DNA of 64,000 nucleotides, taken from Spirochaetia bacterium. Lineage in GTDB: Bacteria > Spirochaetota > Spirochaetia > SZUA-6 > Bin103. Below the pieces are notes generated by a model. That model made no database searches. It had not been told where the DNA came from and saw only the letters and a list, made by a program, of their open reading frames with translations. Shown piece by piece: positions 25,707-43,652 of this stretch. How positions within the stretch are numbered: position 1 is the first letter of the stretch; the number at the start of each line of letters is the position of its first letter. A program made the translations under genes and the position numbers. Location: contig OZ241863.1 of NCBI GenBank assembly GCA_965203055.1, positions 2,185,313-2,249,312 on the forward strand. The letters run 5' to 3'.

Positions 25707-26750
25707 ATGGCCGACGATAACGCATCCAACCAGCCACAATCTGCCGACCCGCCGCCGATCAGCCAGCGGCACGACAAGTACTTCTACCGCGTGTTCTCCG
25801 ACCCCGAGAACGCCGCCGGCCTGTTGCGCTCCTACCTCCCCCAGGAACTCGCCAGCACGCTGCGGTGGTCCACCCTCACCCACCGGCCCAGCCGCTTCGT
25901 CAGTGACGACTGGCGCAGCCGCGAGGCCGATCTGCTGTTCTCCGTCGAACGCGAGCTCTCCGGCCCGCCGGTGCTCGTCCTGGTGCTGCTCGAACATCAG
26001 TCCACGCCCGACCGCTGGATGCGGCTGCGGCTGCTGCATTACTGCCTGATGGCCTGGATGCAGTGGCACCGCGAGCACGAGCAGGAGCCGCAGTTGCCGC
26101 TCATCGTGCCGGTGGTATTCTATCAGGGAGCCGAACCGTGGCGTTTCCCGCGGCAGTTCGCGGAGTTGGTTGCCGGCGCGGAGTCCGACCCGGGTTGGGT
26201 GCCGCAGTTCGAGCACCTGCTGATCGACCAGACCGAGCAGAACCCGGAGTCGGTGGAGGGGACGCTGGTCGTGCGGCTGGCGCAGCTCGCGTTGATGACC
26301 GAGTACCGTCGCGCGGGCCGGGAGGAGTTGCTCAACCAATTGGTACAGTTGGTGGAGATGCTGCATCAGGACACAGGGATCGAAGGGGTGGCGCTGCACG
26401 TGGAGTACGTGCTGCTGGCGCTGAAGTCGAATGAGCAGCAGCAGGCGTTCGAGGAGGCGTTGCGACGGACCGTGTCGGGCCAAGGAGGAGAGGTAATGAC
26501 CTACGTGCACAAGATGATCGACGAGGGCATCCGAGAGGGCATCCGAGAGGCCCGCCGGGAGGCCCGCCGAGAGGCCCGCCGGGAGGCCCGCCGGGAGGGC
26601 GAACTGAGGGGGCGGTTGCATACCATCCAGGGACTTTTGGGAAGCGAGGTCCCATGGTCGACCATCGAGGCGGCCACCGGCATCGACGAGGCTGCCTTCC
26701 GGCGCCTCAAGCAGCAGCTCGACGACAACGGCGCCGGCCGCGCCGAGTGA
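25707..26750 (+). CDS. Rpn/YhgA-family recombination-promoting nuclease (PD-(D/E)xK transposase-like)
   Basis: From the ATG at 25707: ...HDKYFYRVFSDPENAAGLLRSYLP... and ...ADLLFSVERELSG...VLVLLEHQSTPDRWMRLRLLHYCLMAWMQWHRE... (the Rpn core with its D/E...K motif), then a C-terminal GIREGIREARREARRE repeat region. It sits at the left edge of the lower-GC island. Confidence 0.8.
   Translation: MADDNASNQPQSADPPPISQRHDKYFYRVFSDPENAAGLLRSYLPQELASTLRWSTLTHRPSRFVSDDWRSREADLLFSVERELSGPPVLVLVLLEHQSTPDRWMRLRLLHYCLMAWMQWHREHEQEPQLPLIVPVVFYQGAEPWRFPRQFAELVAGAESDPGWVPQFEHLLIDQTEQNPESVEGTLVVRLAQLALMTEYRRAGREELLNQLVQLVEMLHQDTGIEGVALHVEYVLLALKSNEQQQAFEEALRRTVSGQGGEVMTYVHKMIDEGIREGIREARREARREARREARREGELRGRLHTIQGLLGSEVPWSTIEAATGIDEAAFRRLKQQLDDNGAGRAE
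26523..26600 (+). repeat. Tandem 12-bp coding repeats (gagggcatccga x2; gaggcccgccgg/ga x4) inside the Rpn gene
   Basis: Direct reading of the sequence; encodes EGIREGIREARREARREARREARREG. Confidence 0.8.
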
Positions 26751-26974
26751 GTCCGCCCGGTACCGGACGTCAGGTACCGCACTTGCTTGGACGTTCCGTC
26801 CCGATCCCGAGGGACCGCACCGGCCGCGCCGGCGTCCGCGGCGACCGTGTTCCGTCCCGCGGCGCCATGGCCTGACCCACGGCGGCTGCCGTATCCATCT
26901 CTCGGTGGGCCAAGAAGATAGCGGCGGGCGCCCGGTGTTGGTAACGGCGCGCCGTCGTGGTACACTACGTGTAG

Positions 26975-29392
26975 ATGACCAAGGATCACGTCATGCGGAT
27001 GGACACGATAGGCGACGAAATCGCACAGATCCCGGTCTCCATCAACTACGACATCATCAGCCTGTTCTCCGAGGGGTTGTACAAGAGTCCGCACAAGGCC
27101 GTAGAGGAACTCGTAAGCAACTCCTATGACGCCGAGGCAGGGCGAGTCCACGTACTGTTGCCGGAAGCGGGAGACGGGACAGGCCCGCGCGATCCGCTGT
27201 GGGTAATCGACGACGGTCACGGGATGAACGAGGATGGATTTCGGCAGCTCTGGCGAGTTGCCGATTCTACCAAGAACCTACCTTCAGCACCGGGCAAAAG
27301 AGCCCCGATCGGACAATTCGGAATTGGTAAGCTGGCGTCCTACGTCCTCGCCTGGGAATTGACCCACATCAGCTGCGTAGCTGGCCGTCTGTTGTTGACC
27401 GTCATGGACTTTCACAAGTGTACCGGGCGGCGACAATATGATAACGCAAGTCCAGTCGAGATCACGTTGCGCGATGTGGATGAGGCAACGGCTCGGTCTC
27501 ACCTGCACGAGATCGCCAAGCGAGACCCGTCTGCGTGGGACATGATGTTCGGCAAGAACCGATCTTCGAGTTGGACCGCCGCCGGCTTGTCCGATTTCAA
27601 GGAGCTGTACAGCAAGCTGGTAGCCGGTACGCTGCGTTGGGTCCTGAGCACGGGACTTCCACTTCACTCGGACTTCGAGGTGCGCCTGAACGGAGACCGG
27701 GTTACGTCGAGCAAGGAAGCCAGGAATCCAATCAAGCGTATCGAGATCAACGACAGCCTGCCTGGTATTGGAAAAATAGAGGGCGCTGCGAGCATCTGGG
27801 GAAATCAATTGACTACTGGCAAATCGGAACAATTTGGCCGTAGTCATGGTTTCTTCGTGCGCGTCCGCAGGCGTGTCATCAACCTGGAAGATGAATTGTT
27901 CGGTATCGAGGCCGTCAACCACGCTGCTTGGTCCCGATTCGCTCTGGTGGTTCATGCCGAAGGGTTGCGTGACTACCTGCTCTCCTCACGCGAAGGAGTC
28001 CGAGATTGCGACCATATTCAGGCGTTTCGCGAGTTCCTCTTGAAGAAATTCAACGATTGTAGATCAGCCTATGAAGAGTGGGATCGTCGCACGAATGAAC
28101 CACTGGAAATGACCTCTCTGTCGGATGGCCATAGTATTCATATCACAGAACCGTTGGTGCGAAGCGTGCGCAACACCGTAGAAGCGGGTGAAGATTCCTT
28201 CTACATCGAAGTTCCGAGTAATGTGGACATAGATGGGCGTCATAAGTGGCTTGATAAGTACGAGAACGAGGTCTCGGAAAGACCGATAGACAAGAGAATC
28301 TTCGAGCGCCAAGGGCCGAATGCCCCCGCACTGCGCTATGATCCAGGCTTGCGCCGTCTGGTCGTGAATCTCGACCATCCGTTCGTCGATAAACTCACGG
28401 CGGGCGGAAAGCGCCGGAATCCGGCCAAGCTCTTCGCGGCGTCCGAAGTCTTCCTGGAAGGACAACTCCAGGTACAGGGCGTTTCCCCGCTTACCATCAA
28501 CAATTTTCTACGGGACCGGGACCGGATATTGAGGTTGACGGCCGGCGATGCTCCTCCTACAGCCGCGGAGGTGGTGCGTCGTCTGGCCGCCGCCCGTAAT
28601 GACTCTCTCGATCTCGAACGGGCGGTCGGTGCGGTCTTCCGTTTACTGGGTTTCGAGTACGAACGGAAGGGGGGGAACAAATCGGGGCCGGACGGGATAT
28701 TATATGCCCGTCTTGGGCGCCGCAAACGTGAGTCGGCAAACTTCAGCGTCGTTTACGACGCGAAGCAGACCAACCATCCGTCAGTACCGGCCGACAAGCT
28801 AGACTTTGCCAGTCTCGAAGACTTCAGAACGCAAGAACATGCCGATTATGGCTTCTTCATCGCCAACGCCTATGCAGCGGAGATGGCGCCCGATGGGGCA
28901 CTCAATCGACGGATTTCACAGGTCGGTGAGAGCCTTACGTTGCTCAAGGTCGAGCATCTACAACGGTTGGTATGGCTGCATTATCACCAGGGAATAACGC
29001 TCACCGTACTTCGTACCCTGTTCGAGAGGGCGCGCACGGTGCCAGATGTGAACTCCTGGATCGATGATCTGAAGAAGACACTGGATGAGCAAGGGGAGGT
29101 TCCGGTGCGAGTTCTTCTCGAAGGCCTCGAACGGGAGAGGAAGGACGACAATAAGGCTATTCCGAACATCGTTGCCGTTCGAGCAAAGCTCCAGTTATTG
29201 CAGCAGTTCGAGCCGGAACGCCTCATCGCGCGATTGAAAGCAGCGGAAAATATCATTGGCAACCGCTGGATCGAGGTAGATGATTCCGGTGAAGTCATCA
29301 TGCACCACACCGCGGAGCAGATCCTCTCGGAGCTGGAGCGTAACATTGCCGGTCTCATGCCCGAGGCGGAACAGATTCCCGAGACGACCTGA
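26975..29392 (+). CDS. MORC-like GHKL ATPase fused to a C-terminal Mrr-like PD-(D/E)xK endonuclease-like domain
   Basis: 805 aa. GHKL N-box ELVSNSYDAEA, G1 box VIDDGHGM, G2 box GQFGIGKLASYV. Near residues 560-610: ...AVFRLLGFEYERKGGNKSGPDGILYA...ANFSVVYDAKQT... (D...D-x-K) resembles the Mrr catalytic-domain pattern. Codon usage and GC are lower than in flanking core genes. Confidence 0.7.
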   Translation: MTKDHVMRMDTIGDEIAQIPVSINYDIISLFSEGLYKSPHKAVEELVSNSYDAEAGRVHVLLPEAGDGTGPRDPLWVIDDGHGMNEDGFRQLWRVADSTKNLPSAPGKRAPIGQFGIGKLASYVLAWELTHISCVAGRLLLTVMDFHKCTGRRQYDNASPVEITLRDVDEATARSHLHEIAKRDPSAWDMMFGKNRSSSWTAAGLSDFKELYSKLVAGTLRWVLSTGLPLHSDFEVRLNGDRVTSSKEARNPIKRIEINDSLPGIGKIEGAASIWGNQLTTGKSEQFGRSHGFFVRVRRRVINLEDELFGIEAVNHAAWSRFALVVHAEGLRDYLLSSREGVRDCDHIQAFREFLLKKFNDCRSAYEEWDRRTNEPLEMTSLSDGHSIHITEPLVRSVRNTVEAGEDSFYIEVPSNVDIDGRHKWLDKYENEVSERPIDKRIFERQGPNAPALRYDPGLRRLVVNLDHPFVDKLTAGGKRRNPAKLFAASEVFLEGQLQVQGVSPLTINNFLRDRDRILRLTAGDAPPTAAEVVRRLAAARNDSLDLERAVGAVFRLLGFEYERKGGNKSGPDGILYARLGRRKRESANFSVVYDAKQTNHPSVPADKLDFASLEDFRTQEHADYGFFIANAYAAEMAPDGALNRRISQVGESLTLLKVEHLQRLVWLHYHQGITLTVLRTLFERARTVPDVNSWIDDLKKTLDEQGEVPVRVLLEGLERERKDDNKAIPNIVAVRAKLQLLQQFEPERLIARLKAAENIIGNRWIEVDDSGEVIMHHTAEQILSELERNIAGLMPEAEQIPETT

Positions 29393-30561
29393 TGGCGCTG
29401 CTATCGATCCATCCGTTTCCCGCTCGCATGGCCCCGGAACTGGCCAGTCGTTCGATTGAAGCCGTGCCGGACGGTGGACTGGTGCTCGATCCGATGTGCG
29501 GCTCCGGCACCGTCGCCCGCGCCGCGGTGGAGGAAGGGCTGCGGTGCGTTGGCACCGATGTCGATCCATTGGCGGTCCTGATGGCAAGGGCATGGACTAC
29601 CCCGGTGGAACCTGAGGAGATTCGGAATGATGCGGAGCGGATCATACGGGAAGCCGGGAAGCTTGAAGATCTAGAGGTCGAACGGACGGCGGATGCGGAG
29701 ACAAGGGAATTCATCTCCTACTGGTTCGCGCCGCGACAGGAGTCGGCGCTGGCGCGCATCGCAACCGTGCTGCGGCGTTGGCAACGTCCGACAAGGGACG
29801 CACTGGCGGTCGCCGTGAGTCGGATCATCGTATCCAAGGAACGGATGGCGTCTCTGGCTCGTGACACCTCTCATAGTCGGCCCCACAAGGTTGCCGACTC
29901 CAATGACTTTGACGTCCCTTCCGGCTTTCTGCGCTCCGCCCGGTACGTGGCCGCACGGCTCGCACCGGATCGAATAACGGGGCAGGCCGATATTCGCCAA
30001 GCCGACGCGCGGCTACTCGACGGGGTCGACGACGCGAGCATCGACCTCGTGCTTACCTCGCCGCCGTACCTCAATGCCATAGACTACCTGCGCGGCCACC
30101 GGCTGGCTCTCGTCTGGTTGGGTCACGAATTGAGACCGCTGAGGGAAATCCGGGCGAACAGCGTCGGAGCGGAGCGCGTGATACCGGCGACCGATACGAA
30201 TCGCGACGTTCGGCGTTTCGTGGGAAATGTCGAATGGTCGAACATTGCTGCTCGGCATCTCGGCTGGATACGGCGTTACGCATCCGACATGGACGCGGTA
30301 CTCCGTCAGATCGTGCGCGTCATCAAGCGGACCGGCCAAGTGGTTCTGGTGCTTGGCAATTCGTTCCTCCGCGGGGCGACCATCGACAACGCGCGGCTCA
30401 TCAAGGAACTTGCCGAAAACGTCGGATTACGTCTCCAGGGCCAACACGTGCGGGAGATCCCTGCTCGGCGACGGTATCTTCCTCCGCCCGGTGTTGGTGA
30501 CGGCTCGCTCGACTCTCGCATGCGCCAGGAGACCGTCCTTACGTTCGCGTCCGATGCATGA
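29392..30561 (+). CDS. Site-specific DNA methyltransferase (amino-MTase, motif I before motif IV: alpha-class-like)
   Basis: Motif I LVLDPMCGSGTVARAA near the N-terminus and motif IV LVLTSPPYLNAIDY about 200 aa later. The start ATG overlaps the GHKL gene stop (TGATG). Confidence 0.75.
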   Translation: MALLSIHPFPARMAPELASRSIEAVPDGGLVLDPMCGSGTVARAAVEEGLRCVGTDVDPLAVLMARAWTTPVEPEEIRNDAERIIREAGKLEDLEVERTADAETREFISYWFAPRQESALARIATVLRRWQRPTRDALAVAVSRIIVSKERMASLARDTSHSRPHKVADSNDFDVPSGFLRSARYVAARLAPDRITGQADIRQADARLLDGVDDASIDLVLTSPPYLNAIDYLRGHRLALVWLGHELRPLREIRANSVGAERVIPATDTNRDVRRFVGNVEWSNIAARHLGWIRRYASDMDAVLRQIVRVIKRTGQVVLVLGNSFLRGATIDNARLIKELAENVGLRLQGQHVREIPARRRYLPPPGVGDGSLDSRMRQETVLTFASDA

Positions 30562-30648
30562 TAGACTACCCCCTCACTGCCCATGGTCAGCGTGCCGCCG
30601 GCGCCACTGCCAAGGTGCAGATGATCTACGTGAACCCGCTCTGCGGAA

Positions 30649-31623
30649 ATGGAGAATATGGACTACTTCAGTGATCGCGAGCGCCCGCCGCCACCACCAA
30701 CGATTACAGAATTTACGAACGCCTCCTGGCGGGGCGTCGCTGCCGCTATCGACACTCGGATTAGAGACGGATCGTTTGGTGCACGTTACCCCGAAATTTG
30801 TCAAGATGGACCATATCCATATGGCACTGATATAGACTCTTTTTGGTGCGCTTTAGCAGGTGATATACCGGAACTCAGTGAACGATGCGAGCGGTTCACA
30901 GAGACCGAACAACCTTCGTTGTTCGCAGCCATGGACTTGATTGAATTCTGCTGGCGTGCCGTAGGCAAACCTCAGAAGACATGGTATCATAAATTCTTTG
31001 ATCACCATCATCTGAAATTCGACGAGGACGCAGGAAAGAGTGAGTTTCGTGAAGATATAAATAGAATATTCCGTCGCAACGGAATGGCATATGAGTTAAC
31101 GACGAATGGAATCGTTGAACGGTTGGTGCCGGAGCAGATTTCGGCGATGGTTCATACGGAATACCGCACGAGTGACAGCGATCTGGACAGGATGCTCGAT
31201 AGTGCTCGTAGAAAATATCTGAGTCCTAACGATGACGAACGCCGTGATTCGCTCCAGTTCTTATGGGACGCATGGGAACGGATCAAAACGATAGACGGTC
31301 CCGACAAGAAATCGGGTGTAAAGAGTCTTCTTGATCAGGCTGCGGGGACGAGTGCATCGAAATTTCGCGCTACTTTGGAAGAGGAGGCAAAGAAATTGAC
31401 GTCGATCGGCAATAGTTTTCAGATACGACACTCGGAGACGAATCAGGAGCGTCTTGACTCCCCGCAGCACGTCGACTATGTCGCCTGCAGGATGTTTTCG
31501 TTCATCTACCTAATTCTTCGGCGTTTTCGTAGTGTTCCGGCGGGTCAATCGTATCATGACAACGGCGATGAAGAAGCCAGCGCTCTCCGCGCGGCTGCAG
31601 CCGATGACGCACTTCCGTTTTGA
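30649..31623 (+). CDS. Hypothetical protein (island gene between the GHKL–MTase pair and Type III mod)
   Basis: 324 aa, non-repetitive composition, lower GC; no motif I can name with confidence (an R-x(n)-H stretch, RRFRSVPAGQSYH, near the C-terminus is only suggestive of a HEPN-like fold). The 3' end overlaps the mod start by 4 nt. Confidence 0.5.
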   Translation: MENMDYFSDRERPPPPPTITEFTNASWRGVAAAIDTRIRDGSFGARYPEICQDGPYPYGTDIDSFWCALAGDIPELSERCERFTETEQPSLFAAMDLIEFCWRAVGKPQKTWYHKFFDHHHLKFDEDAGKSEFREDINRIFRRNGMAYELTTNGIVERLVPEQISAMVHTEYRTSDSDLDRMLDSARRKYLSPNDDERRDSLQFLWDAWERIKTIDGPDKKSGVKSLLDQAAGTSASKFRATLEEEAKKLTSIGNSFQIRHSETNQERLDSPQHVDYVACRMFSFIYLILRRFRSVPAGQSYHDNGDEEASALRAAAADDALPF

Positions 31624-34600
31624 GTATGCGGGACAAGAGAACACCGAAACCGGGGGCCGCCGATAGCGTTAGGTCGATCACGTATCCGGCGAAGCGGAAG
31701 AACATTCCGCCGGCGGGGTTGGAGGCGCAAGGGGTGGTTCGGGAGACGCCGACGGTGCGGTACGACTACAACCCGCATCTGCCGCCGGCGTTGCGCTCCG
31801 CGCCGGACGCCGCGGTCGAGGACCGGCTGCCGGAGTTGCTGGCGGCGGCGCGGCGGCGGGCGCTCTCCGAAGAAGAGGCGGCGCTGCTGGCAGCCGCGCT
31901 GCGCCGGCATGAGCCGTGGCTGGAGTGGAGCGGCAAGCGGGAGCGTCCGTGGTTCGAGGTCGATCCGGTGGCGCTGCACATGCACGAACGGGTCTCCACG
32001 CAGGCGATCCTGCGCGTGCTCAAGCGGCAGGACGCGCAGCGCGACCTGTTCGCCGATCCGCAACTCGACTACGCCCGGGCGGTGCAGTTCTACCGGCACG
32101 ACGTGGATTGGGCGAACCGGATGATCCTCGGCGACTCGCTGCAGGTGATGGCAAGCCTCGCCCGCCGCGAGGACTTGGCCGGCAAGGTGCAGATGATCTA
32201 CGTCGACCCGCCCTACGGGATCAGGTTCGCCTCCAACTTCCAGCCGCAGCTCGGCCAGCGCGACGTCAAGGACCGCCGGCAGGACCTGACCCGCGAGCCG
32301 GAGATGGTCAAGGCGTACCGCGACACCTGGACGCTGGGCGTCCACTCCTACCTGGCCTACCTGCGCGACCGGCTGGCGATGGCGCGCGAGCTGCTCACCG
32401 CCACCGGCAGCATCTTCGTCCAGATCAATGACGAGAATCTTCATCGTGTACGCTCTGTTATGGATGAAATCTACGGAGCGGATAACTTCATCGCGATCAT
32501 AGCATTCAAGAAGACAAGTGGACTGGGGACTTTCGGCGTCGGAAGCGTCTTGGACTTTCTACTCTGGTACGGTAAGGATAAGCAGCAGACAAAGACTAGA
32601 GACCTGCTCGAGGACAAGAATCCTGGCACCTCCGGAAGATTCTACGATCATGTGTTGTTTCCTACAGGGGAACTTAGGCGATTCTCAACATCTGAGAAAG
32701 ATAGCATAGGAGAGGAAGATGGAAAATTGTTACAGGGGAGTGTTCTTTACTCCGAAGGGGCTACGGAAACAGGTAAATTCGAGATCCAGGTAGGACCATA
32801 CAAGTTTCGTCCACCCGCCAATGCCCATTGGAAGACAACTCAAGATGGGATGAATCGTCTCCTCAGCGCCGATCGCGTATTCCTTAAAGGAAAAACCCCT
32901 CGCTATGTCCGTTATCTCGACGATTATCGATGCTATCCACTGACAAACGTCTGGACAGATACGGGATTTGGGGGGTTCGTCGGCGATCAATCAAAGACTT
33001 ACGTGGTTCAAACTTCGTCGTTGATCGTAGCGCGATGCATGTTGATGACTACCGATCCGGGCGATTTGGTGCTCGATCCGACCTGCGGCAGCGGCACGAC
33101 GGCCTACGTCGCCGAGCAGTGGGGGCGGCGCTGGATCACCATCGACACCAGCCGGGTGGCGCTGACGTTGGCCAAGCACCGGCTGATGACCGCCCGGTTC
33201 GACTACTACCGGCTGCGGGCGCTGAGCGCGGAGGACGTGGCGCGCAACCCGAACGGCACCTGGATCGAGGGCACGGACGGCAACGGCGGGCCGAACGGCG
33301 CGCGGCTGACGCTCGATTGCCGGACGGTGCCGCACATAACGCTGCGCAGCATCGCCCGTAACACCTCGCTCGATCCGATCTTCGCCCGCCACGAACCGAT
33401 ACTGGCCCAGGCGCTCGAAGCCCTGAACCGTGCGCTCGCCGCGGTCACCGCCGAGACGCGGCGGAAGCTGGTCGAGAAGTTGATCGCCAAGCACCGCCGC
33501 GACGGCGCCAACGCGGTCACCGATGCCGACGTGCGGCGCTGGCTGCTGCCGGACACGCCGGGCGACCGGCTCCGCCCGGTCGGGGCGCGCCGGCCGCTCA
33601 AGGCGGTCACCGCGCGGCAGGCAGCCCGGTACCGCGACCGGATTCCGGCGCGGGAATGGCGCGCGTGGCAGGCGCCGTTCGACGCCGACCCGGATTGGCC
33701 GCCGCCGCTGCAGGAGGCGCTGGCCGCCTACCGCGCCGCGTGGCGCGCGAAGATGGAGGAGGTCAACGCCGGCATCGCCGCCAACGCCGACGTCGAGGAG
33801 CTGGTCGACCAGCCGGCCGTCGTCAAGGGCACCGTCCGCGTCGCCGGACCGTTCACCATGGAAGGGGTGATCGCGCTGGAGGAAGGGCCGGATTCGCCCA
33901 TCGGCGGCGCGCCGGAGGAGTTGGACGACTTCGGCGCCGAAGACGGCGCCGCGGCGGTCGCCAACGCCGAGGCGCATCTGGACAAGATGATCCGCCTGCT
34001 CAAGGCGAGCGGCGTCCAGTTCCCCGGCAACAAGCACCAGCGCTTCGAGCGGCTCGACCCGATCACCGGGCCGGCGCTGATCCACGCCGAAGGCGAGTGG
34101 CTGAACGGCGCCGGCGCGGCTCGCACCGTGGCGGTCAGCGTCGGCCCGGAGGCCGGCAACGTCACCACGTGGCAGGTCGAGGAGGTGGTGCGCGCCGCCA
34201 ACCGGGCCGGCTACGACGACGTGGTGTTCGCCGGCTTCGGCTTCGACGCCGCGGCGCAGGCCGCCATCGAGCACGCCGCGCATCCCCATCTGCGCCTGCA
34301 CATGGCGCTGATCAGCCCCGACGCGGCCATGGCCGACCTGCTCAAGACCCAGCCCGGCAGCCAGATATTCACCGTGTTCAGCGCCCCGCGCGTGGCCGGC
34401 CCCACCCGCCGGGAGGACGGCGATTACGAAGTCGAGGTAGAAGGAATGGACGTCTACGATCCGGTCTCCAACACCCTCGCCCCCACCGAATCGGCGCGCA
34501 TCGCCGCCTGGTTCCTGGACACCGACTACGACGGGCGCACCTTCTGCATCTGCCAGGCGTTCTTCCCCGACAAGAGCAAGTGGCGCCGGCTGGCCAAGGC

Positions 34601-34781
34601 GCTCGGCAGCGCCGGCGTGGTGGACAAGGCCGCCTTCGACGACCTGAGCGGCCTGCGCAGCCTGCCGTTCGCCCCGCCGCCCGACCGGCGCGTCGGCGAA
34701 CCGTGGCGCATCGCGGTCAAGGTGATCGACCCGCGCGGCAACGAGGGTCTGCGCGTGCTGACCGTCGAGGCCCCGGCATGA
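31620..34781 (+). CDS. mod: Type III restriction-modification methyltransferase (Mod; beta-class N6A/N4C MTase with long C-terminal extension)
   Basis: Motif IV MIYVDPPYGIRF (about residue 195) precedes motif I LVLDPTCGSGTTAYVA (about residue 515): beta-class order as in Type III Mod and pfam N6_N4_Mtase. 1053 aa. The high-GC antisense ORF 32991..34301 is judged spurious. Confidence 0.75.
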   Translation: MSMRDKRTPKPGAADSVRSITYPAKRKNIPPAGLEAQGVVRETPTVRYDYNPHLPPALRSAPDAAVEDRLPELLAAARRRALSEEEAALLAAALRRHEPWLEWSGKRERPWFEVDPVALHMHERVSTQAILRVLKRQDAQRDLFADPQLDYARAVQFYRHDVDWANRMILGDSLQVMASLARREDLAGKVQMIYVDPPYGIRFASNFQPQLGQRDVKDRRQDLTREPEMVKAYRDTWTLGVHSYLAYLRDRLAMARELLTATGSIFVQINDENLHRVRSVMDEIYGADNFIAIIAFKKTSGLGTFGVGSVLDFLLWYGKDKQQTKTRDLLEDKNPGTSGRFYDHVLFPTGELRRFSTSEKDSIGEEDGKLLQGSVLYSEGATETGKFEIQVGPYKFRPPANAHWKTTQDGMNRLLSADRVFLKGKTPRYVRYLDDYRCYPLTNVWTDTGFGGFVGDQSKTYVVQTSSLIVARCMLMTTDPGDLVLDPTCGSGTTAYVAEQWGRRWITIDTSRVALTLAKHRLMTARFDYYRLRALSAEDVARNPNGTWIEGTDGNGGPNGARLTLDCRTVPHITLRSIARNTSLDPIFARHEPILAQALEALNRALAAVTAETRRKLVEKLIAKHRRDGANAVTDADVRRWLLPDTPGDRLRPVGARRPLKAVTARQAARYRDRIPAREWRAWQAPFDADPDWPPPLQEALAAYRAAWRAKMEEVNAGIAANADVEELVDQPAVVKGTVRVAGPFTMEGVIALEEGPDSPIGGAPEELDDFGAEDGAAAVANAEAHLDKMIRLLKASGVQFPGNKHQRFERLDPITGPALIHAEGEWLNGAGAARTVAVSVGPEAGNVTTWQVEEVVRAANRAGYDDVVFAGFGFDAAAQAAIEHAAHPHLRLHMALISPDAAMADLLKTQPGSQIFTVFSAPRVAGPTRREDGDYEVEVEGMDVYDPVSNTLAPTESARIAAWFLDTDYDGRTFCICQAFFPDKSKWRRLAKALGSAGVVDKAAFDDLSGLRSLPFAPPPDRRVGEPWRIAVKVIDPRGNEGLRVLTVEAPA

Positions 34782-35968
34782 TCGACCGCATCGTCATCGA
34801 GAACTTCAAGAGCTTCCGCAAGGTCGATCTCTCGCTCGGCCCGATGAATCTGTTCATCGGCACCAATGCCAGCGGCAAGTCCAACTTCCTCGACGCGCTG
34901 CGCGTGCTGCAGGGGATCGGCAACGGCTTCACCATCGGCGAGATTCTCGACGGCAAACCGAGAAGCGCGACCAGCGAAGTATGGGAAGGGATTCGAGGCG
35001 GCAGCTCACTGACCTGCTTCGCCGGCAGCGATGGCAATGCGACGCTTGAGGTAAGTGGAATCACGTCAGCACGCTGGGAGTACACAATATCGTTCTCGCC
35101 GGCGCACGGACGAGTCACCCGTGAACGTCTTAGGGTGGACGGAGAAGACATTTACGACTCTATTCCGGTTAGCAACAAGAACGAAAATCCTATCCTCTCG
35201 GTACAACACTACGCGGGAACACTAGAAAGGCCGTCGATGATGGAGTTTGACAGCTCCCGGCCGGTGCTCGGACAGCTTGCCAGTAGTTTGTTCGATTTTG
35301 GCGAATTCGCCGCGCGGACTCTCGTACTCTTGGCAAACTCCCAACGGATCGACCCGTCGCCGCCGGTGTTGCAGCAGTATTCGCAAGCCCGTCACGTGCA
35401 ACGTCTTGGGGAGCACGGAGAGAACTTCGCTGCGCTCGTGCGGACGATATGTAAGGATAAGCGAAAAAAGGGCGCCTACCTGGCATGGCTCCAGGAACTT
35501 CGGCCGGACGAGGTGCAAGACGTAGGGACGTTGAGAGGTGCTGTCGGCGAGGCGTTATTCATGATCCGGGAAGGCGGCCGGGTATTCCCCGCGCCGGTGC
35601 TGAGCGACGGCACCCTGCGGTTCGCGGCGATTACCGCCGCGTTCTTTCAGCCGGCAATGCCTAAAGTCATGACGATCGAGGAGATCGAGAACGGCATCCA
35701 CCCCAGTCGCCTGAGGTTGCTCATAGAGCTGCTGCGAAGTCAGACTGAATCGGGCGCAACGCAAGTCTTCGCCACTACGCATTCTCCGACCGTACTCGAA
35801 TGGCTCGAAGAGTCCGAGCACCGGACGACGTTCCTGGCCGCCCGTGACGAGTCCACGGGCGAGTCGACGATCCGACCGGTGATCGACGTGCCCCACTTCA
35901 AGGAGGTGGTGGAGAAGTATCCGTTGGCGGACCTGCTTGCGGAAGGCTGGCTGGAAGCCGTGCTGTGA
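34778..35968 (+). CDS. AAA/ABC-type ATPase of the OLD/AbiLi/AriA-like class (AAA_15/AAA_21-like)
   Basis: From the ATG at 34778 (ATGA overlap with the mod stop): MIDRIVIENFKSFRKVDLSLGPMNLFIGTNASGKSNFLDAL (Walker A), ...VMTIEEIENGIHP (Walker B/D-loop), ...FATTHSP (H-loop). 396 aa. Confidence 0.8.
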   Translation: MIDRIVIENFKSFRKVDLSLGPMNLFIGTNASGKSNFLDALRVLQGIGNGFTIGEILDGKPRSATSEVWEGIRGGSSLTCFAGSDGNATLEVSGITSARWEYTISFSPAHGRVTRERLRVDGEDIYDSIPVSNKNENPILSVQHYAGTLERPSMMEFDSSRPVLGQLASSLFDFGEFAARTLVLLANSQRIDPSPPVLQQYSQARHVQRLGEHGENFAALVRTICKDKRKKGAYLAWLQELRPDEVQDVGTLRGAVGEALFMIREGGRVFPAPVLSDGTLRFAAITAAFFQPAMPKVMTIEEIENGIHPSRLRLLIELLRSQTESGATQVFATTHSPTVLEWLEESEHRTTFLAARDESTGESTIRPVIDVPHFKEVVEKYPLADLLAEGWLEAVL

Positions 35969-36525
35969 AGGTGCTCGTGATCGCGGAAGATCCGGTCCAC
36001 AACGGTCAAGTCCTGAAGCCGCTGGCGCAGGCGCTGCTGGCTGACGCCGGCCGGGAATCGGCTCGGGTCCAGATCATGGGGAACCCAAGGATTCGCGGCT
36101 ACGCGCATGCGCTGCGAGCCATCCGCAACGAGATCGTCGGTCGTTATCGATGGTACGACCTCTGGTTGTTCTTCCCGGATGCCGATCGTGGTAGTCGTGA
36201 TGCGATGGAGCGGCTGGAGGCCGATCTCGCAGCGCAGGGTGTCTCGCTTCTCTGTTGTCCCGCGCAGCCCGAGGTGGAGATATACGCTTGCGCAGCGTTC
36301 CGCGGCGATATGACGGAGACCTGGAACGAAGCGCGAACAAATCCTCGAATGAAGGAAGAAGTATTCCAACCGCTTCTCGATCTGCACGGTGACCAAAGAC
36401 GGCCCGACAGAGGTAGAGGGCTGATGATCAATCAGTCGTTGAGGAATCTTCCGTTGCTGTTTCAGCTGTGCCCGGAACTGAAGTGTCTGCGCGACCGGAT
36501 CGCGGCGCATCTGAGCGAACATTGA
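35965..36525 (+). CDS. Small TOPRIM-like partner protein (RloB/AbiLii/DUF4276-like)
   Basis: 186 aa. The GTG start overlaps the ATPase stop (GTGA). A conserved-Glu motif KVLVIAEDP and a DxD motif LWLFFPDADRG fit the TOPRIM catalytic pattern seen in small partners of OLD-type ATPases. Confidence 0.55.
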   Translation: MKVLVIAEDPVHNGQVLKPLAQALLADAGRESARVQIMGNPRIRGYAHALRAIRNEIVGRYRWYDLWLFFPDADRGSRDAMERLEADLAAQGVSLLCCPAQPEVEIYACAAFRGDMTETWNEARTNPRMKEEVFQPLLDLHGDQRRPDRGRGLMINQSLRNLPLLFQLCPELKCLRDRIAAHLSEH

Positions 36526-39500
36526 GCGCTTCCGATACCGATACCGATACGCAGCTTCCGCTGCAGCCGGTCGAGGAGCCGATCATCTGCTCGCCCTACG
36601 CCGAGCCGGCGGCGCACTGGCTGTACGACACCGGCACCGGCCTGCCGTCGAAGATCGAGGGGCGGCGCGAGGCCGGCTACTGGTTCAAGACCGAGCGGGC
36701 GGGGAGCGCTCAGCAGGCGCTGTTCGCGGAGGAGGAACGGGACGATCTGCCGCTGGTGAACGTGCTGCGCGCCGACGTGCGCCGCTGGCGGCGGGCCGGC
36801 TGGCCCGGCTCGTCGCCGATCACCAAGAAGCTGCTGCGCCACTGGTGGCGCGAGGACCGCTCGCGGCGGCTGTTCTTCTGCCAGCTCGAAGCGGTGGAGA
36901 CCGTCATCTACCTGCGCGAGCTGCTGGCGCGGGGCAGGAAGCCGCGCTGGACGCCGCGGCTCTCGCTGCGCGAGTTCGAGCTGCTCGGCAAGGGCCGCAA
37001 TCCCCGCCCTGAAGAGTGGGTGGCCAAGGTGGCGCAGCCGCCCAAGCTCGCCGACTTCCCGAACAGCAGCGGCGGTCGGCCGATCCCGCGCTACGCCTGC
37101 AAGATGGCGACCGGCAGCGGCAAGACCGTGGTCATGGCGATGCTCGCCGCCTGGAGCTTCTGCAACCGCGGCGCGGCGCCCGCCGACCCGCGCTTCCCGC
37201 GCCGCGCGCTGGTGGTCTGTCCCAACCTCACCATCAAGGAGCGGCTGCAGGTGCTGCGCCCGGCCGCGCCCGGCAACTACTACGAGGAGTTCGACCTGGT
37301 GCCGTCCGCGCTGCGCCCGGAGCTGGCCAAAGGCAGGGTGCTGGTCACCAACTGGCACCGGCTCAGCCCCGACTCCGAGGAGATCCGCGTCGGCACGGTG
37401 GCGGTCGGCCGGATCGGCGAGGAGACCCCGGAGGCGTTCGCCCGCAACCGCCTGGGCGACCTGTACGACGGCGAGCCGCTGCTGGTGCTCAACGACGAAG
37501 GCCACCACGCCTACCGCCCGGCGCCCGCCGCCGACGACCTGCCGGCAACCGCGCGGGCCGAGCGCGAGGCGGCCACGGTGTGGGTGGACGGACTGGACCG
37601 GATCAACGCCGCCTGCGGCATCGACGTCTGCATCGACCTGTCGGCCACGCCGTTCTACCTGCAGGGCAGCGGCTATCCCGAAGGCTCCCCGTTCCCGTGG
37701 ATCGTCAGCGACTTCAGTCTGGTCGACGCCATCGAGTGCGGCATCACGAAAATTCCGCGGCTGCCCGCGGCGGACAACACCGGGCAGCCCGACCCCAAGT
37801 ACTTCCGGCTGTGGGAACACGTCACCCGCGACCTGCGACCGGGCGAACGGTTGACTCGGGGGCGGCCGAAGCCGGAGGTGGTCTACCGCAAGGTCGAAGA
37901 CGCCCTGCTCACCCTCGCCGGCGAATGGAAGGAGCGGTTCGAGCAGGCGCAGGCGGCCGCGCCCGGCCAGGACCGCACCCCGCCGGTGATGATCGTGGTG
38001 TGCGACAACACCGCCATCGCCACCCACTTCCACCGCATGATCTCCGGCGAGGAACCGGACGCGGACCACCCGCAGCAAAAGCGCTACGGCTCCGGCATCA
38101 AGGGATTCCCCGAGCTGTGGAACGCCGCCGGCGGCCAGTACACGCTGCGCATCGACTCCAAGCTGCTCGAAGCCGCCGAGAGCGGCGATCCCGCGGCCAC
38201 CAGGAAGGACGCCGCTGAGGAGTTGCGCCGCATCGTCGCGACCATCGGCCGGCCCGGCGCGCCCGGGGCGCGCATCCGCTGCGTAATCAGCGTGAACATG
38301 CTCAGCGAAGGGTGGGACGCCAACAACGTGACCCACATCCTGGGGCTGCGCGCGTTTTCGAGTCAGTTGCTGTGCGAGCAGGTGGTCGGCCGCGGCCTGC
38401 GCCGCATGGACTACACGCCGGACCCGGAGACCGGCCTGCTCACCGCGGAGTACGTCGACATCTTCGGCGTGCCGTTCTCGCTGATCCCGTTCAAGGGCCG
38501 CGCGCCGGGCGCGCCGGCGCCGGCGGACGATTCGGCCCCCAAGCATGAGGTGACCGCGCTCCCGGAGCGGCAGGCGTTCGAGATTCGCTTCCCGGTGGTG
38601 GAAGGCTACGTCATCTCGCTGGAGCGCCACCGCGTCACCTGCGACGTCGCCCAGGTGGAGCGCACGGCGCTCGATCCGGCGAGCGTGCCGGTCGACACCT
38701 TCGTGCGGCCGCAGGTCGGCTACAAGGTCGGCGCGCCGGGCCACTACGGCGGCTTCGGATTCGAGTCCGTCGACCGGCAGCAGTACTACGCCGCGCACCA
38801 TCCGCAGACGATCGCCTTCGAGATCGCCCGCGACGTGGTGCGCCAGCTCACCGACGCGGCGGACGGCGGCAACGGCGCAGCCAACGGCAACGGCGCGGCC
38901 CGGCAGGTCGCGCGCCACGCGCTGTTCCCGCAGGCGCTGCGGATCGTGCAGGCGTATCTCCGGGAGCGCGTTGACCTGCGCGGCTGCCACCCGTGCGAGA
39001 TCGGCCTGCAGACCTACGCCGAACGGATCGCCGCGCTGCTGGCCGCCGCGATCCGGCCGCACGACTCCCAAGGGGAACGGCCGCCGCTACCGCGCTTGAA
39101 CCGCTACCAGCCGCTCGGCAGCACCGCGCGGGTCCGCTTCAAGACCGCGCGCCCGGTGCAGGCGACGCAGGCCAGCCACCTCAATTACGTGGCCTGCGAC
39201 ACCGGCAGTTGGGAGCAGGCCGCGGCGGTCCGGCTCGAACGGCTGGCCGGGCAGGGCATCGTCGAGTGCTACGCGCGCAACGACCACCTGGAGTTCACCA
39301 TCCCCTACCAGCACTACGGCGACGGCGAACCGCGCGCCTACGAGCCCGACTTCATCGTGCGGCTGACCAACGGCCTCCACGTGGTGCTGGAGATCAAGGG
39401 CCAGTCCCGCGCGGACACCGACGCCAAGCACGAAGCGGCCAAGCGCTGGGTGCGCGCCGTCAATCACTGGCGCCGACTCGGCGAGTGGCGCTTCCTGGTA

Positions 39501-39554
39501 TGCCGCGACCCGCAGACCCTCGGCCAGCACCTGACGGCAGTTCATTCACGGTAG
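36468..39554 (+). CDS. res: Type III restriction endonuclease Res subunit (SF2 helicase + C-terminal PD-(D/E)xK nuclease)
   Basis: Helicase motif I CKMATGSGKTVVMAM, motif II LVLNDEGHHAY, motif VI EQVVGRGLRRMDY; C-terminal nuclease motif ...YEPDFIVRLTNGLHVVLEIKGQ... . The start is ambiguous: the ATG at 36468 would overlap the TOPRIM gene by 58 nt; a TTG at 36521 (LSASDTDTDT...) would overlap by only 5 nt. Confidence 0.8.
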   Translation: MPGTEVSARPDRGASERTLSASDTDTDTQLPLQPVEEPIICSPYAEPAAHWLYDTGTGLPSKIEGRREAGYWFKTERAGSAQQALFAEEERDDLPLVNVLRADVRRWRRAGWPGSSPITKKLLRHWWREDRSRRLFFCQLEAVETVIYLRELLARGRKPRWTPRLSLREFELLGKGRNPRPEEWVAKVAQPPKLADFPNSSGGRPIPRYACKMATGSGKTVVMAMLAAWSFCNRGAAPADPRFPRRALVVCPNLTIKERLQVLRPAAPGNYYEEFDLVPSALRPELAKGRVLVTNWHRLSPDSEEIRVGTVAVGRIGEETPEAFARNRLGDLYDGEPLLVLNDEGHHAYRPAPAADDLPATARAEREAATVWVDGLDRINAACGIDVCIDLSATPFYLQGSGYPEGSPFPWIVSDFSLVDAIECGITKIPRLPAADNTGQPDPKYFRLWEHVTRDLRPGERLTRGRPKPEVVYRKVEDALLTLAGEWKERFEQAQAAAPGQDRTPPVMIVVCDNTAIATHFHRMISGEEPDADHPQQKRYGSGIKGFPELWNAAGGQYTLRIDSKLLEAAESGDPAATRKDAAEELRRIVATIGRPGAPGARIRCVISVNMLSEGWDANNVTHILGLRAFSSQLLCEQVVGRGLRRMDYTPDPETGLLTAEYVDIFGVPFSLIPFKGRAPGAPAPADDSAPKHEVTALPERQAFEIRFPVVEGYVISLERHRVTCDVAQVERTALDPASVPVDTFVRPQVGYKVGAPGHYGGFGFESVDRQQYYAAHHPQTIAFEIARDVVRQLTDAADGGNGAANGNGAARQVARHALFPQALRIVQAYLRERVDLRGCHPCEIGLQTYAERIAALLAAAIRPHDSQGERPPLPRLNRYQPLGSTARVRFKTARPVQATQASHLNYVACDTGSWEQAAAVRLERLAGQGIVECYARNDHLEFTIPYQHYGDGEPRAYEPDFIVRLTNGLHVVLEIKGQSRADTDAKHEAAKRWVRAVNHWRRLGEWRFLVCRDPQTLGQHLTAVHSR

Positions 39555-40199: not shown

Positions 40200-41282
40200 T
40201 CAGCGGAGCTCGATCTCTTGGTCGCCGGCTATTGCGATCTCTTCGCCGGCGAAGCACACGGCGCGCTCCAGCGACGGGTGCACTTTCTGTATGGAGACTT
40301 CCCCGGCGAGATCAGGCCGCGACTTCACCAGCGACCCGAGCCCTCGAATGGAGTCATAGCTGTGCGTCGTCGCGAAAACCTGCACGTCGGACTCTTTCGC
40401 CACTTGGATGAGAAGCCGCCACACGTCTTCCATGACGGTCCAGTGCAGGCCGGCATCGATCTCGTCGATCAGCAGGAATCCATGGTTCGCTCCGTGCAGG
40501 GCAAGCCGCAACGCGAGCAAGCGCCGCAAACCGTCTCCGTAACTGCCGATCGGCATCCGCCGGCCTCCTTCACGGCGTCCCACCAGGATCGTTTTGCCCC
40601 TCGTTCTGTCCCCCGTCAGGAAATAGATCGAGGCGATCTCCGGCACGAGGAGCTGCATGTCCCGCGCGATTTCGTCCTCGCGTCCCTCGGCAATCACTTC
40701 GTCCCATGCGTCGCTCATCCTGGCATCCACCAGAGAACCCATATCCAGAAAGCGGACCGGAGGTTCGGAGGAGCCGTTGCGCCGGTATCTCGGCCAGAGC
40801 TGATACAAGAGCGTACCTTCCTTGTCCACCGGCAACACGGTCGATCTCTCGGTCCCGGTGGCGATGCGCAGGCCAAATTCCGGATCGGTCTCGTCTTCTA
40901 CATCAAGCGCACGCTGCCGCGTTCGACTTCTCATTAGGTCCCAGCGTTCGGCATCTTCCCCGACGTCATCAAGCGAAAGAATCGTCGCTGATATATCGTG
41001 CTGCTCCGACTTCAACACGAAACGAGTTCCGGGTTGGCACACATGGCCGGAGAACAGATGGGAGATGTCCACTCCATACCGCAACGAGCCAGTTTCGCGC
41101 CGCCGCCGGGCGACCTCTGCGAAGGCTGAGGGCCGGCCGTTGGAGACGAGCAGCTCGACCGCTTCGAGGACGGTCGTCTTGCCGCAGTTGTTCTTGCCGA
41201 CGATCAGGTTCACCCTCGTCAAGTCAGTCAGCCGATAGGAATCGAAGCCGCGGAATCCGCGCAGCTCAAGCGTCTTCATCAT
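40200..41282 (-). CDS. Second AAA/ABC-type ATPase of the OLD/AbiLi-like class
   Basis: From the ATG at 41282 (MMKTLELRGFRGFDSYRLTDLTRVNLIVGKNNCGKTTVLEAV, Walker A), ...GFLLIDEIDAGLH (Walker B), ...VFATTHS (H-loop). The ORF's 5' extension to 41411 would overlap the DinB-like gene and is low-complexity. Confidence 0.75.
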   Translation of the reverse strand: MMKTLELRGFRGFDSYRLTDLTRVNLIVGKNNCGKTTVLEAVELLVSNGRPSAFAEVARRRRETGSLRYGVDISHLFSGHVCQPGTRFVLKSEQHDISATILSLDDVGEDAERWDLMRSRTRQRALDVEDETDPEFGLRIATGTERSTVLPVDKEGTLLYQLWPRYRRNGSSEPPVRFLDMGSLVDARMSDAWDEVIAEGREDEIARDMQLLVPEIASIYFLTGDRTRGKTILVGRREGGRRMPIGSYGDGLRRLLALRLALHGANHGFLLIDEIDAGLHWTVMEDVWRLLIQVAKESDVQVFATTHSYDSIRGLGSLVKSRPDLAGEVSIQKVHPSLERAVCFAGEEIAIAGDQEIELR

Positions 41283-41779
41283 CAGGCGCGGGCGACCCAC
41301 GCTACGCCGGTGCCGGTGGTTTGGCGGATGCGTTCGCTGAGCTGGCCGGTGTGGTGCTGGAGATGGCGCAGATTGTAGGCCAGCCGCTCCACCGGGCCGA
41401 ACGGCAGCCACGAGAAGCCCGACTCGGCGCCCAGGTCCAGCGCCGCGATCTGCCGGCGCGCGTGGCCGCGGCAGAACTCCAGGAACTCCAGGATATTCTC
41501 CCGCGTATAGGCGGCCGCCTCCTTACCGAGATCCTCGGCGCCGTCGCGGTGTCCGCTCCAGGGGCGGTGCTCCGCTACGGTCCGAAACAGGTAGAGATGC
41601 GCGTAGAACAGGGCACGGTAGGCGATGTGCCAGAACCGGTTGACCTGCTCGGCGCTGTCCCAGGCGTCATCCGGGCACGCCCGCACCGCCGCCTCCAGCA
41701 TGTTCAGGCCGGCCCGGAATTGGGCATCGAACGCGGTACGAATGGAATCTTCTGCTGCCACGGTTCGATGGTAGGCCAC
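41282..41779 (-). CDS. DinB_2/DinB-YfiT-like family protein (copy 1)
   Basis: ...FRAGLNMLEAAVRACPDDAWDSAEQVNRFWHIAYRALFYAHLYLF...HRDGAEDLGKEAAAYTRENILEFLEFCRGHARRQIAALDL...LAYNLRHLQHHTGQLSE... has the His-rich four-helix pattern of the DinB_2 family. The start is uncertain (GTG at 41779 or ATG at about 41702). Confidence 0.55.
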   Translation of the reverse strand: MAYHRTVAAEDSIRTAFDAQFRAGLNMLEAAVRACPDDAWDSAEQVNRFWHIAYRALFYAHLYLFRTVAEHRPWSGHRDGAEDLGKEAAAYTRENILEFLEFCRGHARRQIAALDLGAESGFSWLPFGPVERLAYNLRHLQHHTGQLSERIRQTTGTGVAWVARA

Positions 41780-41857
41780 AACGGGGGTACTATCAACAGC
41801 GAACCGATGGACGCCGCCAGCGCCAGCCTGCCGATCAACCTTGCCAACCTGCTCCAC
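41297..41857. repeat. Direct repeat copy 1 (about 561 bp, about 97% identical to 43649..44210)
   Basis: Manual alignment of the two stretches shows only scattered single-base differences. Both copies carry the DinB_2-like gene. Confidence 0.8.
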
Positions 41858-41949
41858 GGCCGCGGTGTCGAGTCGGTATCGCTCGGCGCCCGCAGCCGAC
41901 GACCTGCCGGCGGCCACGCGGACCGGGCGCGAGGCGGCCACGGAGCAGG

Positions 41950-43308: not shown

Positions 43309-43652
43309 TCTCGAATCACCTCTTCACGCATTGCCCTGTCGTCCACACCCAGTCGATACCCGTGATAGCTTCGTCCTTCGTGCCCCAGTTTCGCCTCGTA
43401 AGGCTCTCCGTCCTGATCTACTGACCAGACATATTTCGGGTAACCACTCATGCGATACGTGCTCACCATTCCAAGCCTCAGACCATCGATGAGGAGCCTC
43501 TTAGCTTCGTCCCTTCTGATCACCCGCTTACTGTCGCACAGTGATTTGTGTGGTCGTGGACTGGGCGGACCGTGGAATCCATAGTCGGCGGGTATCGTTT
43601 CGGCATTCGCAGCCTCCTGACGCGGGGGCCGGATCAGTCGGGGCCGAGCCAC
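43281..43652 (-). CDS. Small hypothetical protein upstream of, and overlapping, the 452-aa gene
   Basis: 123 aa. ...MVSTYRMSGYPKYVWSVDQDGEPYEAKLGHEGRSYHGYRLGVDDRAMREEVIREWL... . No family recognised. The 3' end overlaps the next gene by 28 nt. The start is uncertain (the 5' end overlaps the DinB copy-2 stop region; an internal ATG at about 43469 is possible). Confidence 0.4.
   Translation of the reverse strand: MARPRLIRPPRQEAANAETIPADYGFHGPPSPRPHKSLCDSKRVIRRDEAKRLLIDGLRLGMVSTYRMSGYPKYVWSVDQDGEPYEAKLGHEGRSYHGYRLGVDDRAMREEVIREWLARSRTP

Follow-up and report, generated by a model that had tools for sequence, protein, structure and literature searches.

A pair of adjacent genes in the genome of a Spirochaetia bacterium probably (at a probability of about 0.75) forms a two-gene restriction-modification (R-M) module within a defence island, with a GHKL ATPase-nuclease of 799-805 amino acids (aa) as the restriction enzyme and a DNA methyltransferase (MTase) as the marker of host DNA. 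The genes lie in a 64,000-nucleotide stretch of contig OZ241863.1 (assembly GCA_965203055.1, positions 2,185,313 to 2,249,312), here called the window, to which coordinates refer unless another locus is named. The island is set off by its base composition, with a GC content of 56-66% across 26.9-43.4 kb of the window in a genome of ~71% GC. Direct support for the module comes from the domain identities of the two proteins, the conservation of their catalytic residues, their near-obligate pairing, their likely translational coupling and their mobility. The two genes are:

26975..29392, plus strand: GHKL-ATPase/PD-(D/E)xK nuclease gene, open reading frame (ORF) of 805 aa, with Pfam match HATPase_c_3 and an AlphaFold2 model
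29392..30561, plus strand: DNA methyltransferase gene, 389 aa, with matches to Pfam N6_N4_Mtase (6.4e-10) and PADLOC MTase_II (2.3e-31)

An ATPase fused to a nuclease

The original prediction, a reading of the sequence alone, described three ORFs of 805, 389 and 324 aa on the plus strand, and these, together with all the motifs that it quoted, are found in the translations where it had placed them. The first two are real genes rather than chance ORFs, because the large protein has more than 1396 homologues and the MTase more than 7000; both counts are lower bounds, as is that of more than 500 metagenome loci. The large protein is laid out as follows:

27014..28099, plus strand: GHKL (Bergerat) ATPase and S5/transducer-like middle domain, ~residues 14-375, with E45/N49/D52, D79xGxG83 and G113QFGIGK119
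28100..28561, plus strand: helical/mixed linker of unassigned role, ~residues 376-529, from the secondary structure of the AlphaFold2 model; no Pfam match
28562..28954, plus strand: PD-(D/E)xK nuclease domain of the FokI/HindIII/BspD6I/Mrr_cat type, ~residues 530-660
28616-28618, 28691-28693, 28757-28759 and 28763-28765, plus strand: predicted catalytic residues E548, D573, D595 and K597, respectively
28955..29359, plus strand: C-terminal helical region, tentatively a winged helix, ~residues 661-795; candidate DNA-binding or dimerisation module

The N-terminal half carries the GHKL motifs ELVSNSYDA (residues 45-53), DDGHGM (79-84) and GQFGIGK (113-119). HATPase_c_3 (PF13589) is the sole Pfam family on the large protein, at 61.3 bits against a cut-off of 25 (E = 1.3e-16). 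Forty-four homologues were used to build an AlphaFold2 model, with a mean predicted local distance difference test (pLDDT) score of 74; the N-terminal half of the model matches Hsp90/TRAP1, MORC2/3/4 and SMCHD1 in a Foldseek search against the PDB. As in MORC and paraMORC proteins, the GHKL domain is followed by a transducer domain of the S5 fold. The MORC-like ATPase of the original prediction is thus well founded on both the Pfam and the Foldseek matches. PADLOC gives zero matches to this protein.

The nuclease motif FRLLGFEYERKGG...PDGILYA...VVYDAKQT spans residues 555-599, and the domain around it has the alpha-beta-beta-beta-alpha-beta core and the E...PD...(D/E)xK signature of the Mrr_cat/FokI clade. 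A phmmer search of 1.84 billion cluster representatives with residues 525-700 gave 185 matches; those of ~800 aa carry HATPase_c_3, while in shorter matches Mrr_N+Mrr_cat or HARE-HTH+Mrr_cat score above Pfam thresholds. The search thereby reaches Mrr_cat proteins, and with the conservation of E548, D573 and K597 it upholds the Mrr-like domain that had been proposed. Within the family itself, Mrr_cat matches weakly in 11 of 44 members and FokI_cleav_dom weakly on two homologues, and the sequence likeness to FokI is weak (hhalign E = 0.088). A separate model of the C-terminal part, based on a 14-sequence alignment, has low confidence in the nuclease core (pLDDT ~40-47).

An alignment of 73 relatives, 27-100% identical, bears on both catalytic centres. 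The ATPase residues E45, N49, D52, D79, G81, G113 and F115-K119 are conserved. So are E548, D573, G574 and K597 in the nuclease, where position 595 is D or E throughout. Such conservation argues that the ATPase and nuclease active sites are both under selection. The least conserved block of the alignment, residues 376-450 (identity 0.23-0.24), falls in the linker. Beyond the nuclease, the C-terminal region forms helices and then a beta-hairpin at high pLDDT (85-95); HTH_20 matches it weakly in 7 of 44 homologues, and Foldseek gives only non-significant matches of the winged-helix type (best E = 0.77). The architecture is therefore GHKL, S5-like transducer, linker, FokI/Mrr_cat-type PD-(D/E)xK nuclease and C-terminal helical region.

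An alpha-class methyltransferase

The second gene encodes an MTase with the motifs HPFPA (residues 7-11), DPMCGSGT (DxxxGxGT, 33-40) and TSPPY (222-226). Motif X/I stands at the N-terminus and is followed by ~180 aa and then motif IV, which is the alpha arrangement. Alignment with the beta-class enzyme TTHA0409 shows the order to be permuted, in keeping with the alpha class of amino-MTases to which the protein had been assigned from its sequence. None of HPFPA, DxxxGxGT and TSPPY varies among 65 relatives, S223 being present in 65 of 65, and no characterised close homologue of the MTase was found. The form SPP[YF] in motif IV tends to occur in N4-cytosine MTases and D/NPPY in N6-adenine MTases, a rule that has exceptions. 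The invariant SPPY accordingly hints at N4-cytosine methylation.

Near-obligate pairing and wide distribution

The first scan of genome contigs, with a single protein query, gave 3 loci, for which a scan of metagenomes compensated. Ten further contexts were fetched and 80 metagenome loci added; one of the contexts, L004, duplicates the window at low coverage and was excluded from counts. Among the 70 loci with enough flanking DNA to be decidable, a homologous MTase gene adjoins the nuclease gene in 68 (97%), so that the pair does co-occur in other genomes, one of the points on which the original prediction had staked itself. Of these loci, 39 have the MTase gene downstream and 26 have it upstream on the same strand as the nuclease gene, and in 3 the two genes converge; the distance between them is mostly no more than 350 bp. 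The nuclease and the MTase diverge from the window proteins in parallel (Pearson r = 0.85 between their identities, n = 61), and 40 of the 120 best nuclease matches are on contigs equal in size to those among the 120 best MTase matches. Clustering of neighbouring ORFs showed no third recurrent gene beside the pair. Because of the adjacency in 68 of 70 loci and the correlated divergence, the pair is a genuine two-gene module of the R-M type. As in Type II R-M systems, the genes for the restriction endonuclease (REase) and the MTase are separate, adjacent and co-inherited.

The two loci that have no MTase gene beside the nuclease gene differ in kind. In L025 (1660-6408) the nuclease is a truncated member of 755 aa; IS21-type istA/istB genes stand where the MTase gene would be, and an IS3-like fragment lies upstream of the truncated gene, a case of module inactivation by insertion sequences. 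The other locus, L003 (8001-12211 of OZ251575.1, labelled as a Spirochaetia metagenome-assembled genome), comes from a relative of the window's organism and occupies the same chromosomal slot as the pair does in the window, and its nuclease gene is intact, with a product 71% identical that has all catalytic residues. There, the nuclease gene is followed by an AAA_21 gene, a homologue of the 186-aa ORF described below and a Type III-like mod gene, with M20 peptidase and glycosyltransferase genes upstream.

The family is abundant and occurs in records labelled Gammaproteobacteria, Alphaproteobacteria and Spirochaetia, and also on human-gut metagenome contigs. In a plasmid collection there was no full-length relative; 5 partial matches to the GHKL region were found, all annotated as 'ATP-binding protein'. 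The cassette is horizontally acquired and mobile, and the three-gene block to which it belongs in the window has 56-61% GC inside a genome of ~71%.

Start and coupling of the operon

Two short elements were read from the sequence at the start of the operon:

26962..26967, plus strand: TACACT, a tentative -10-like hexamer upstream of the operon
26982-26986, plus strand: AAGGA, Shine-Dalgarno sequence 6 nt before the ATG at 26993

The true start of the nuclease gene is probably this ATG at 26993 (M7 of the ORF), which gives a product of 799 aa. This start is favoured because an identical database protein (P0001) is 799 aa long, because the L006 and L003 relatives have their start at the corresponding ATG, and because AAGGA stands 6 nt upstream and the TACACT hexamer is conserved in L005. 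The hexamer region is kept there within the block CGTGGTACACTnnGTnTAGATG. A generic sigma-70 scan does not call the hexamer, and the promoter and terminator scan as a whole was at background level. An imperfect inverted repeat, TACAC-TAC-GTGTA, overlaps the hexamer at 26950-26975 and is partly kept in L005. It could be an operator, although no gene for a controller (C) protein is present.

At the other end of the nuclease gene, the junction reads ...ACC TGATGGCG, and the TGA stop of the nuclease and the ATG of the MTase have one base in common (TGATG). The same one-base overlap is present in L005-L009, and translational coupling of nuclease and MTase is likely.

Proposed mechanism and alternative readings

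N-terminal dimerisation of GHKL proteins such as MutL, MORC, Hsp90 and GyrB is driven by ATP, and the cleavage domain of FokI or BspD6I cuts one strand and needs a partner for a double-strand break. An ATP-clamp mechanism is proposed as the most likely one on the strength of these known behaviours. The MTase would methylate a specific sequence in host DNA. Where the target is unmethylated, the GHKL heads would use ATP to dimerise or to clamp and would unite two cleavage domains, each a single-strand cutter like FokI and BspD6I, and the two together would make a double-strand break, possibly after a DNA loop had been captured between sites. In this scheme, cleavage by the family would be sensitive to methylation, dependent on ATP and gated by dimerisation, and either polypeptide may be the one that reads the sequence. 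A bolder and quite tentative suggestion is that the pair represents a mechanistically separate ATP-dependent restriction class, in which a GHKL clamp replaces the helicase or translocase and, by dimerising or trapping a DNA loop in the manner of MutL and MORC, unites two FokI-like half-site cutters on unmethylated DNA. If so, the enzyme would be neither a classical Mg2+-only Type II enzyme nor a Type I/III translocase, and it would provide a tractable bacterial model for the reading of DNA methylation by MORC/SMCHD1-type ATPases.

Several points weigh against a restriction enzyme of this description. In L003 there is no MTase gene within 8 kb of the intact nuclease gene, not what one would expect if the REase were lethal and free-standing. 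No sequence-recognition domain was confidently identified in the nuclease protein, whose C-terminus has no significant structural match, and a hypervariable specificity region, sought in both nuclease and MTase, was seen in neither. The step from SPPY to N4-methylcytosine follows a textbook trend. The REase HgiDII illustrates that the presence of a GHKL domain does not by itself prove ATP-dependent cleavage, and the literature searched yielded no biochemical study of the GHKL-nuclease family on recognition site, cleavage or ATPase activity.

Some of these points would be accommodated by a Type III-like division of labour, which is possible but distinctly less probable than a self-sufficient restriction enzyme. 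The MTase would then be the only sequence reader and would recruit the GHKL-nuclease as its 'Res', with a GHKL motor in place of the helicase, and the nuclease alone would be inert. Toleration of the orphan intact gene in L003 speaks for such a split, as do the lack of a significant DNA-recognition domain in the nuclease protein and the tight co-inheritance and translational coupling of the two genes (with the same r = 0.85). The ~180 aa between motifs I and IV of the MTase could serve as a target-recognition domain, and paraMORCs have been proposed to join recognition and cleavage sites by DNA looping (Iyer et al., 2008; PMC2292703). However, the order of the genes varies and includes convergent pairs, as is typical when Type II restriction and modification genes are independent but less so when the proteins form an obligate complex. 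With its weak helix-turn-helix signal, the C-terminal helical region could also bind DNA itself.

Two further readings separate the nuclease from restriction of unmethylated DNA. The protein is unlikely to be an immune nuclease of the Shedu/VcSduA type, in which the GHKL domain would sense a phage cue and license a non-specific nuclease while the MTase is an accessory or passenger. VcSduA has the same broad GHKL and PD-(D/E)xK architecture and functions from one gene alone (PMC12137116), L003 has the nuclease gene alone, and the FokI-type cleavage domain is, as established knowledge has it, intrinsically non-specific. Against it stand the 97% linkage to an MTase gene and the lack of any DUF4263 match when 44 members were compared with Pfam at E<=1. 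It is more improbable still that the protein acts on the product of the linked MTase, either as a modification-dependent Type IV enzyme resembling Mrr or as a repair nuclease in the manner of MutL/Vsr. Outside the family, the nuclease domain is closest in sequence to Mrr_N+Mrr_cat proteins, Mrr being a Type IV enzyme, and neighbourhoods combining MORC, methylase and Vsr genes, along with the analogy to MutL, were noted by Iyer et al. (PMC2292703). However, it would be suicidal for a Type IV enzyme to be translationally coupled to an MTase that generates its substrate, the modified-DNA reader Mrr_N is absent from the window protein and its 44 homologues, and the pair sits in mobile defence islands inside Type I/III operons rather than in housekeeping contexts.

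The third gene and the surrounding island

The original prediction also proposed that the gene following the MTase might be a third component. This did not hold: the gene encodes an AbiJ_NTD4/PDC-S32 protein and is variable between relatives. The features of this gene and of the operon beyond it are:

30649..31623, plus strand: AbiJ_NTD4/PDC-S32 gene, 324 aa, outside the two-gene module, from Pfam and PADLOC profiles
31620-34781: Type III-like mod gene (PADLOC MTase_III, 5.6e-169)
34778-35968: embedded AAA_21 ATPase gene, PDC-M07A-like (6e-64)
35965-36525: ORF of 186 aa with no family match
36468-39554: Res-like endonuclease gene, BPTD_3080 family (NCBIfam, 8.7e-276)

The 324-aa protein matches AbiJ_NTD4 (PF18863; 2.2e-14, 54.6 bits against a cut-off of 34) and, over its full length, the PADLOC profile PDC-S32 (7.1e-52, 298 of 301 profile positions). 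In L005, where the nuclease is 85% identical, the third gene is missing and the MTase gene is directly followed by a Type III-like mod gene; in L006 its slot is occupied by a DUF3800 gene, and it is absent from all 80 metagenome loci. Its family (at least 919 proteins) has a contig in common with the nuclease matches in only 1 of 120 cases. Absence or replacement in relatives and the lack of co-distribution rule it out as a component of the module, and it is instead a candidate abortive-infection gene, carried independently in a slot whose content varies. Its C-terminal half contains a motif, GN-FQ-IRHSE...H274-x-D276...R281, that is kept in 25 homologues and is possibly an RNase site of the HEPN-like kind; no HEPN profile matches the protein.

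The AAA_21 gene and the 186-aa gene are a defence pair nested in the Type III-like operon (31620-39554). A multi-gene system resembling MADS and reaching from the GHKL gene to Res was considered and rejected, as the PADLOC mad models miss the GHKL protein and the composition differs from that described (10.1101/2023.03.30.534895). The mandatory MAD6-8 have no match, and generic mad2/mad3 matches fall only on the MTase and the neighbouring AAA_21 gene. Further along, a second AAA_21/AAA_15 ATPase gene lies on the minus strand at 40200-41411, and beyond it long overlapping ORFs (416 aa, plus; 452 aa, minus; 316 aa, plus) extend to 43365 without a Pfam match. The GC content of 40200-43365 is 61-67%, still reduced, and a host GH116 gene follows at 45283; this segment is probably more defence cargo. 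On the other side, a YhgA/Rpn-like Transposase_31 gene (Pfam 1.7e-38; ~25760-26750) flanks the low-GC island upstream of the pair. The C-terminus of its product contains a short (REAR)n peptide repeat, EGIREGIREARREARREARREARREGELR, and in L005 genes homologous to it flank the pair.

The pair adjoins Type III-like mod/res genes in the window, in L005 and in L006. In L007 (4511-18544) and L008 (5161-18421), the pair, an AAA_21 gene and a gene of ~220 aa stand between hsdM/hsdS and hsdR. Type I operons act as landing pads for defence cassettes, and these two loci are another case. The host genes that flank the island in the window recur in L006, L003 and L004, with M20 peptidase and glycosyltransferase genes in all three and MR_MLE and sulfatase genes in L006. 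The site is an integration hotspot with turnover of cassettes, because the three loci have the same flanks and different island contents.

Comparison with known systems

The prediction of GHKL-fused restriction nucleases, as bacterial ancestors of the eukaryotic MORC ATPases, dates back 18 years, and the statements in the original prediction that the system is distinct from Types I-IV and that few or none of its kind are characterised went too far, given R.VeiORF1182P (PMC2441816), paraMORC3 (PMC2292703), HgiDII/BbrUII and the genetically tested VcSduA (PMC12137116). The architecture is not new and its kind was already predicted in 2008; the window family stands apart by the detail of its nuclease clade and by its near-obligate MTase partner. 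PADLOC has no model and NCBIfam no dedicated model for the GHKL-nuclease family, and censuses of R-M and defence systems probably undercount it, since these models are lacking and distant plasmid relatives are labelled 'ATP-binding protein'. The pair is convenient for testing how a GHKL domain gates a nuclease according to DNA methylation, as it comprises two genes in 3.6 kb with both active sites conserved, and a FokI-like cleavage domain under ATP control may be of interest to enzyme engineering.

The closest precedents are two families with which the window family is compared here on the basis of their published descriptions. Orlowski and Bujnicki (2008) distinguished five GHKL-bearing REase subfamilies, among which that of R.VeiORF1182P has a PD-(D/E)xK C-terminus and was considered a putative Type II enzyme (PMC2441816). 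Iyer, Abhiman and Aravind (2008) defined paraMORC3 as GHKL and S5 domains plus a nuclease of the restriction-endonuclease fold, and proposed that DNA loops between recognition and cleavage sites (PMC2292703). Like the window protein, both have an N-terminal GHKL (and S5) region and a C-terminal PD-(D/E)xK domain, occur in R-M contexts, are mobile and are known by computational prediction only. However, paraMORC3 has an E-D-ExK, RecB-like nuclease, is often standalone and was later equated with DUF4263/Shedu, whereas the window family has the E-D-[D/E]xK pattern of the Mrr_cat/FokI/HindIII clade and very rarely lacks an MTase partner.

Another relative is VcSduA, a GHKL and DUF4263 protein of the Vibrio cholerae WASA lineage, whose phage defence needs both ATPase and nuclease residues (Adams et al., 2025; PMC12137116); GHKL-Shedu architectures have also been noted by Gu et al. 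VcSduA and the window protein each combine a GHKL ATPase, a middle domain and a PD-(D/E)xK nuclease in one polypeptide. The nuclease of VcSduA is of the DUF4263 type and the system is a single gene without an MTase, whereas the window protein is linked to an MTase and has no DUF4263/SduA match. HgiDII and BbrUII (NCBIfam NF050001) are genuine REases that have a GHKL domain at the N-terminus and are accompanied by a cognate MTase, the arrangement proposed for the window pair. The match of the window protein to NF050001 covers the GHKL region only (residues 34-147 on profile positions 16-132 of 659) and scores 39.2 bits where the cut-off is 550; the C-terminal domain of HgiDII could not be assigned a known fold in 2008 (PMC2441816).

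The nuclease domain relates the window protein to FokI, BspD6I and HindIII, but it has no recognition domain of the FokI type, and its cleavage domain stands behind a GHKL ATPase. It differs from the Type IV enzyme Mrr in having no Mrr_N, in being fused to an ATPase and in its pairing with an MTase, which would imply the opposite logic, with methylation blocking rather than triggering cleavage. With MutL, MORC and SMCHD1 it has in common the fold of the N-terminal ~375 residues, and MutL also carries or recruits a nuclease. The window protein nevertheless differs from all three in its C-terminal nuclease, in the absence of CW, coiled-coil and MutL C-terminal domains, and in its place within a defence island.

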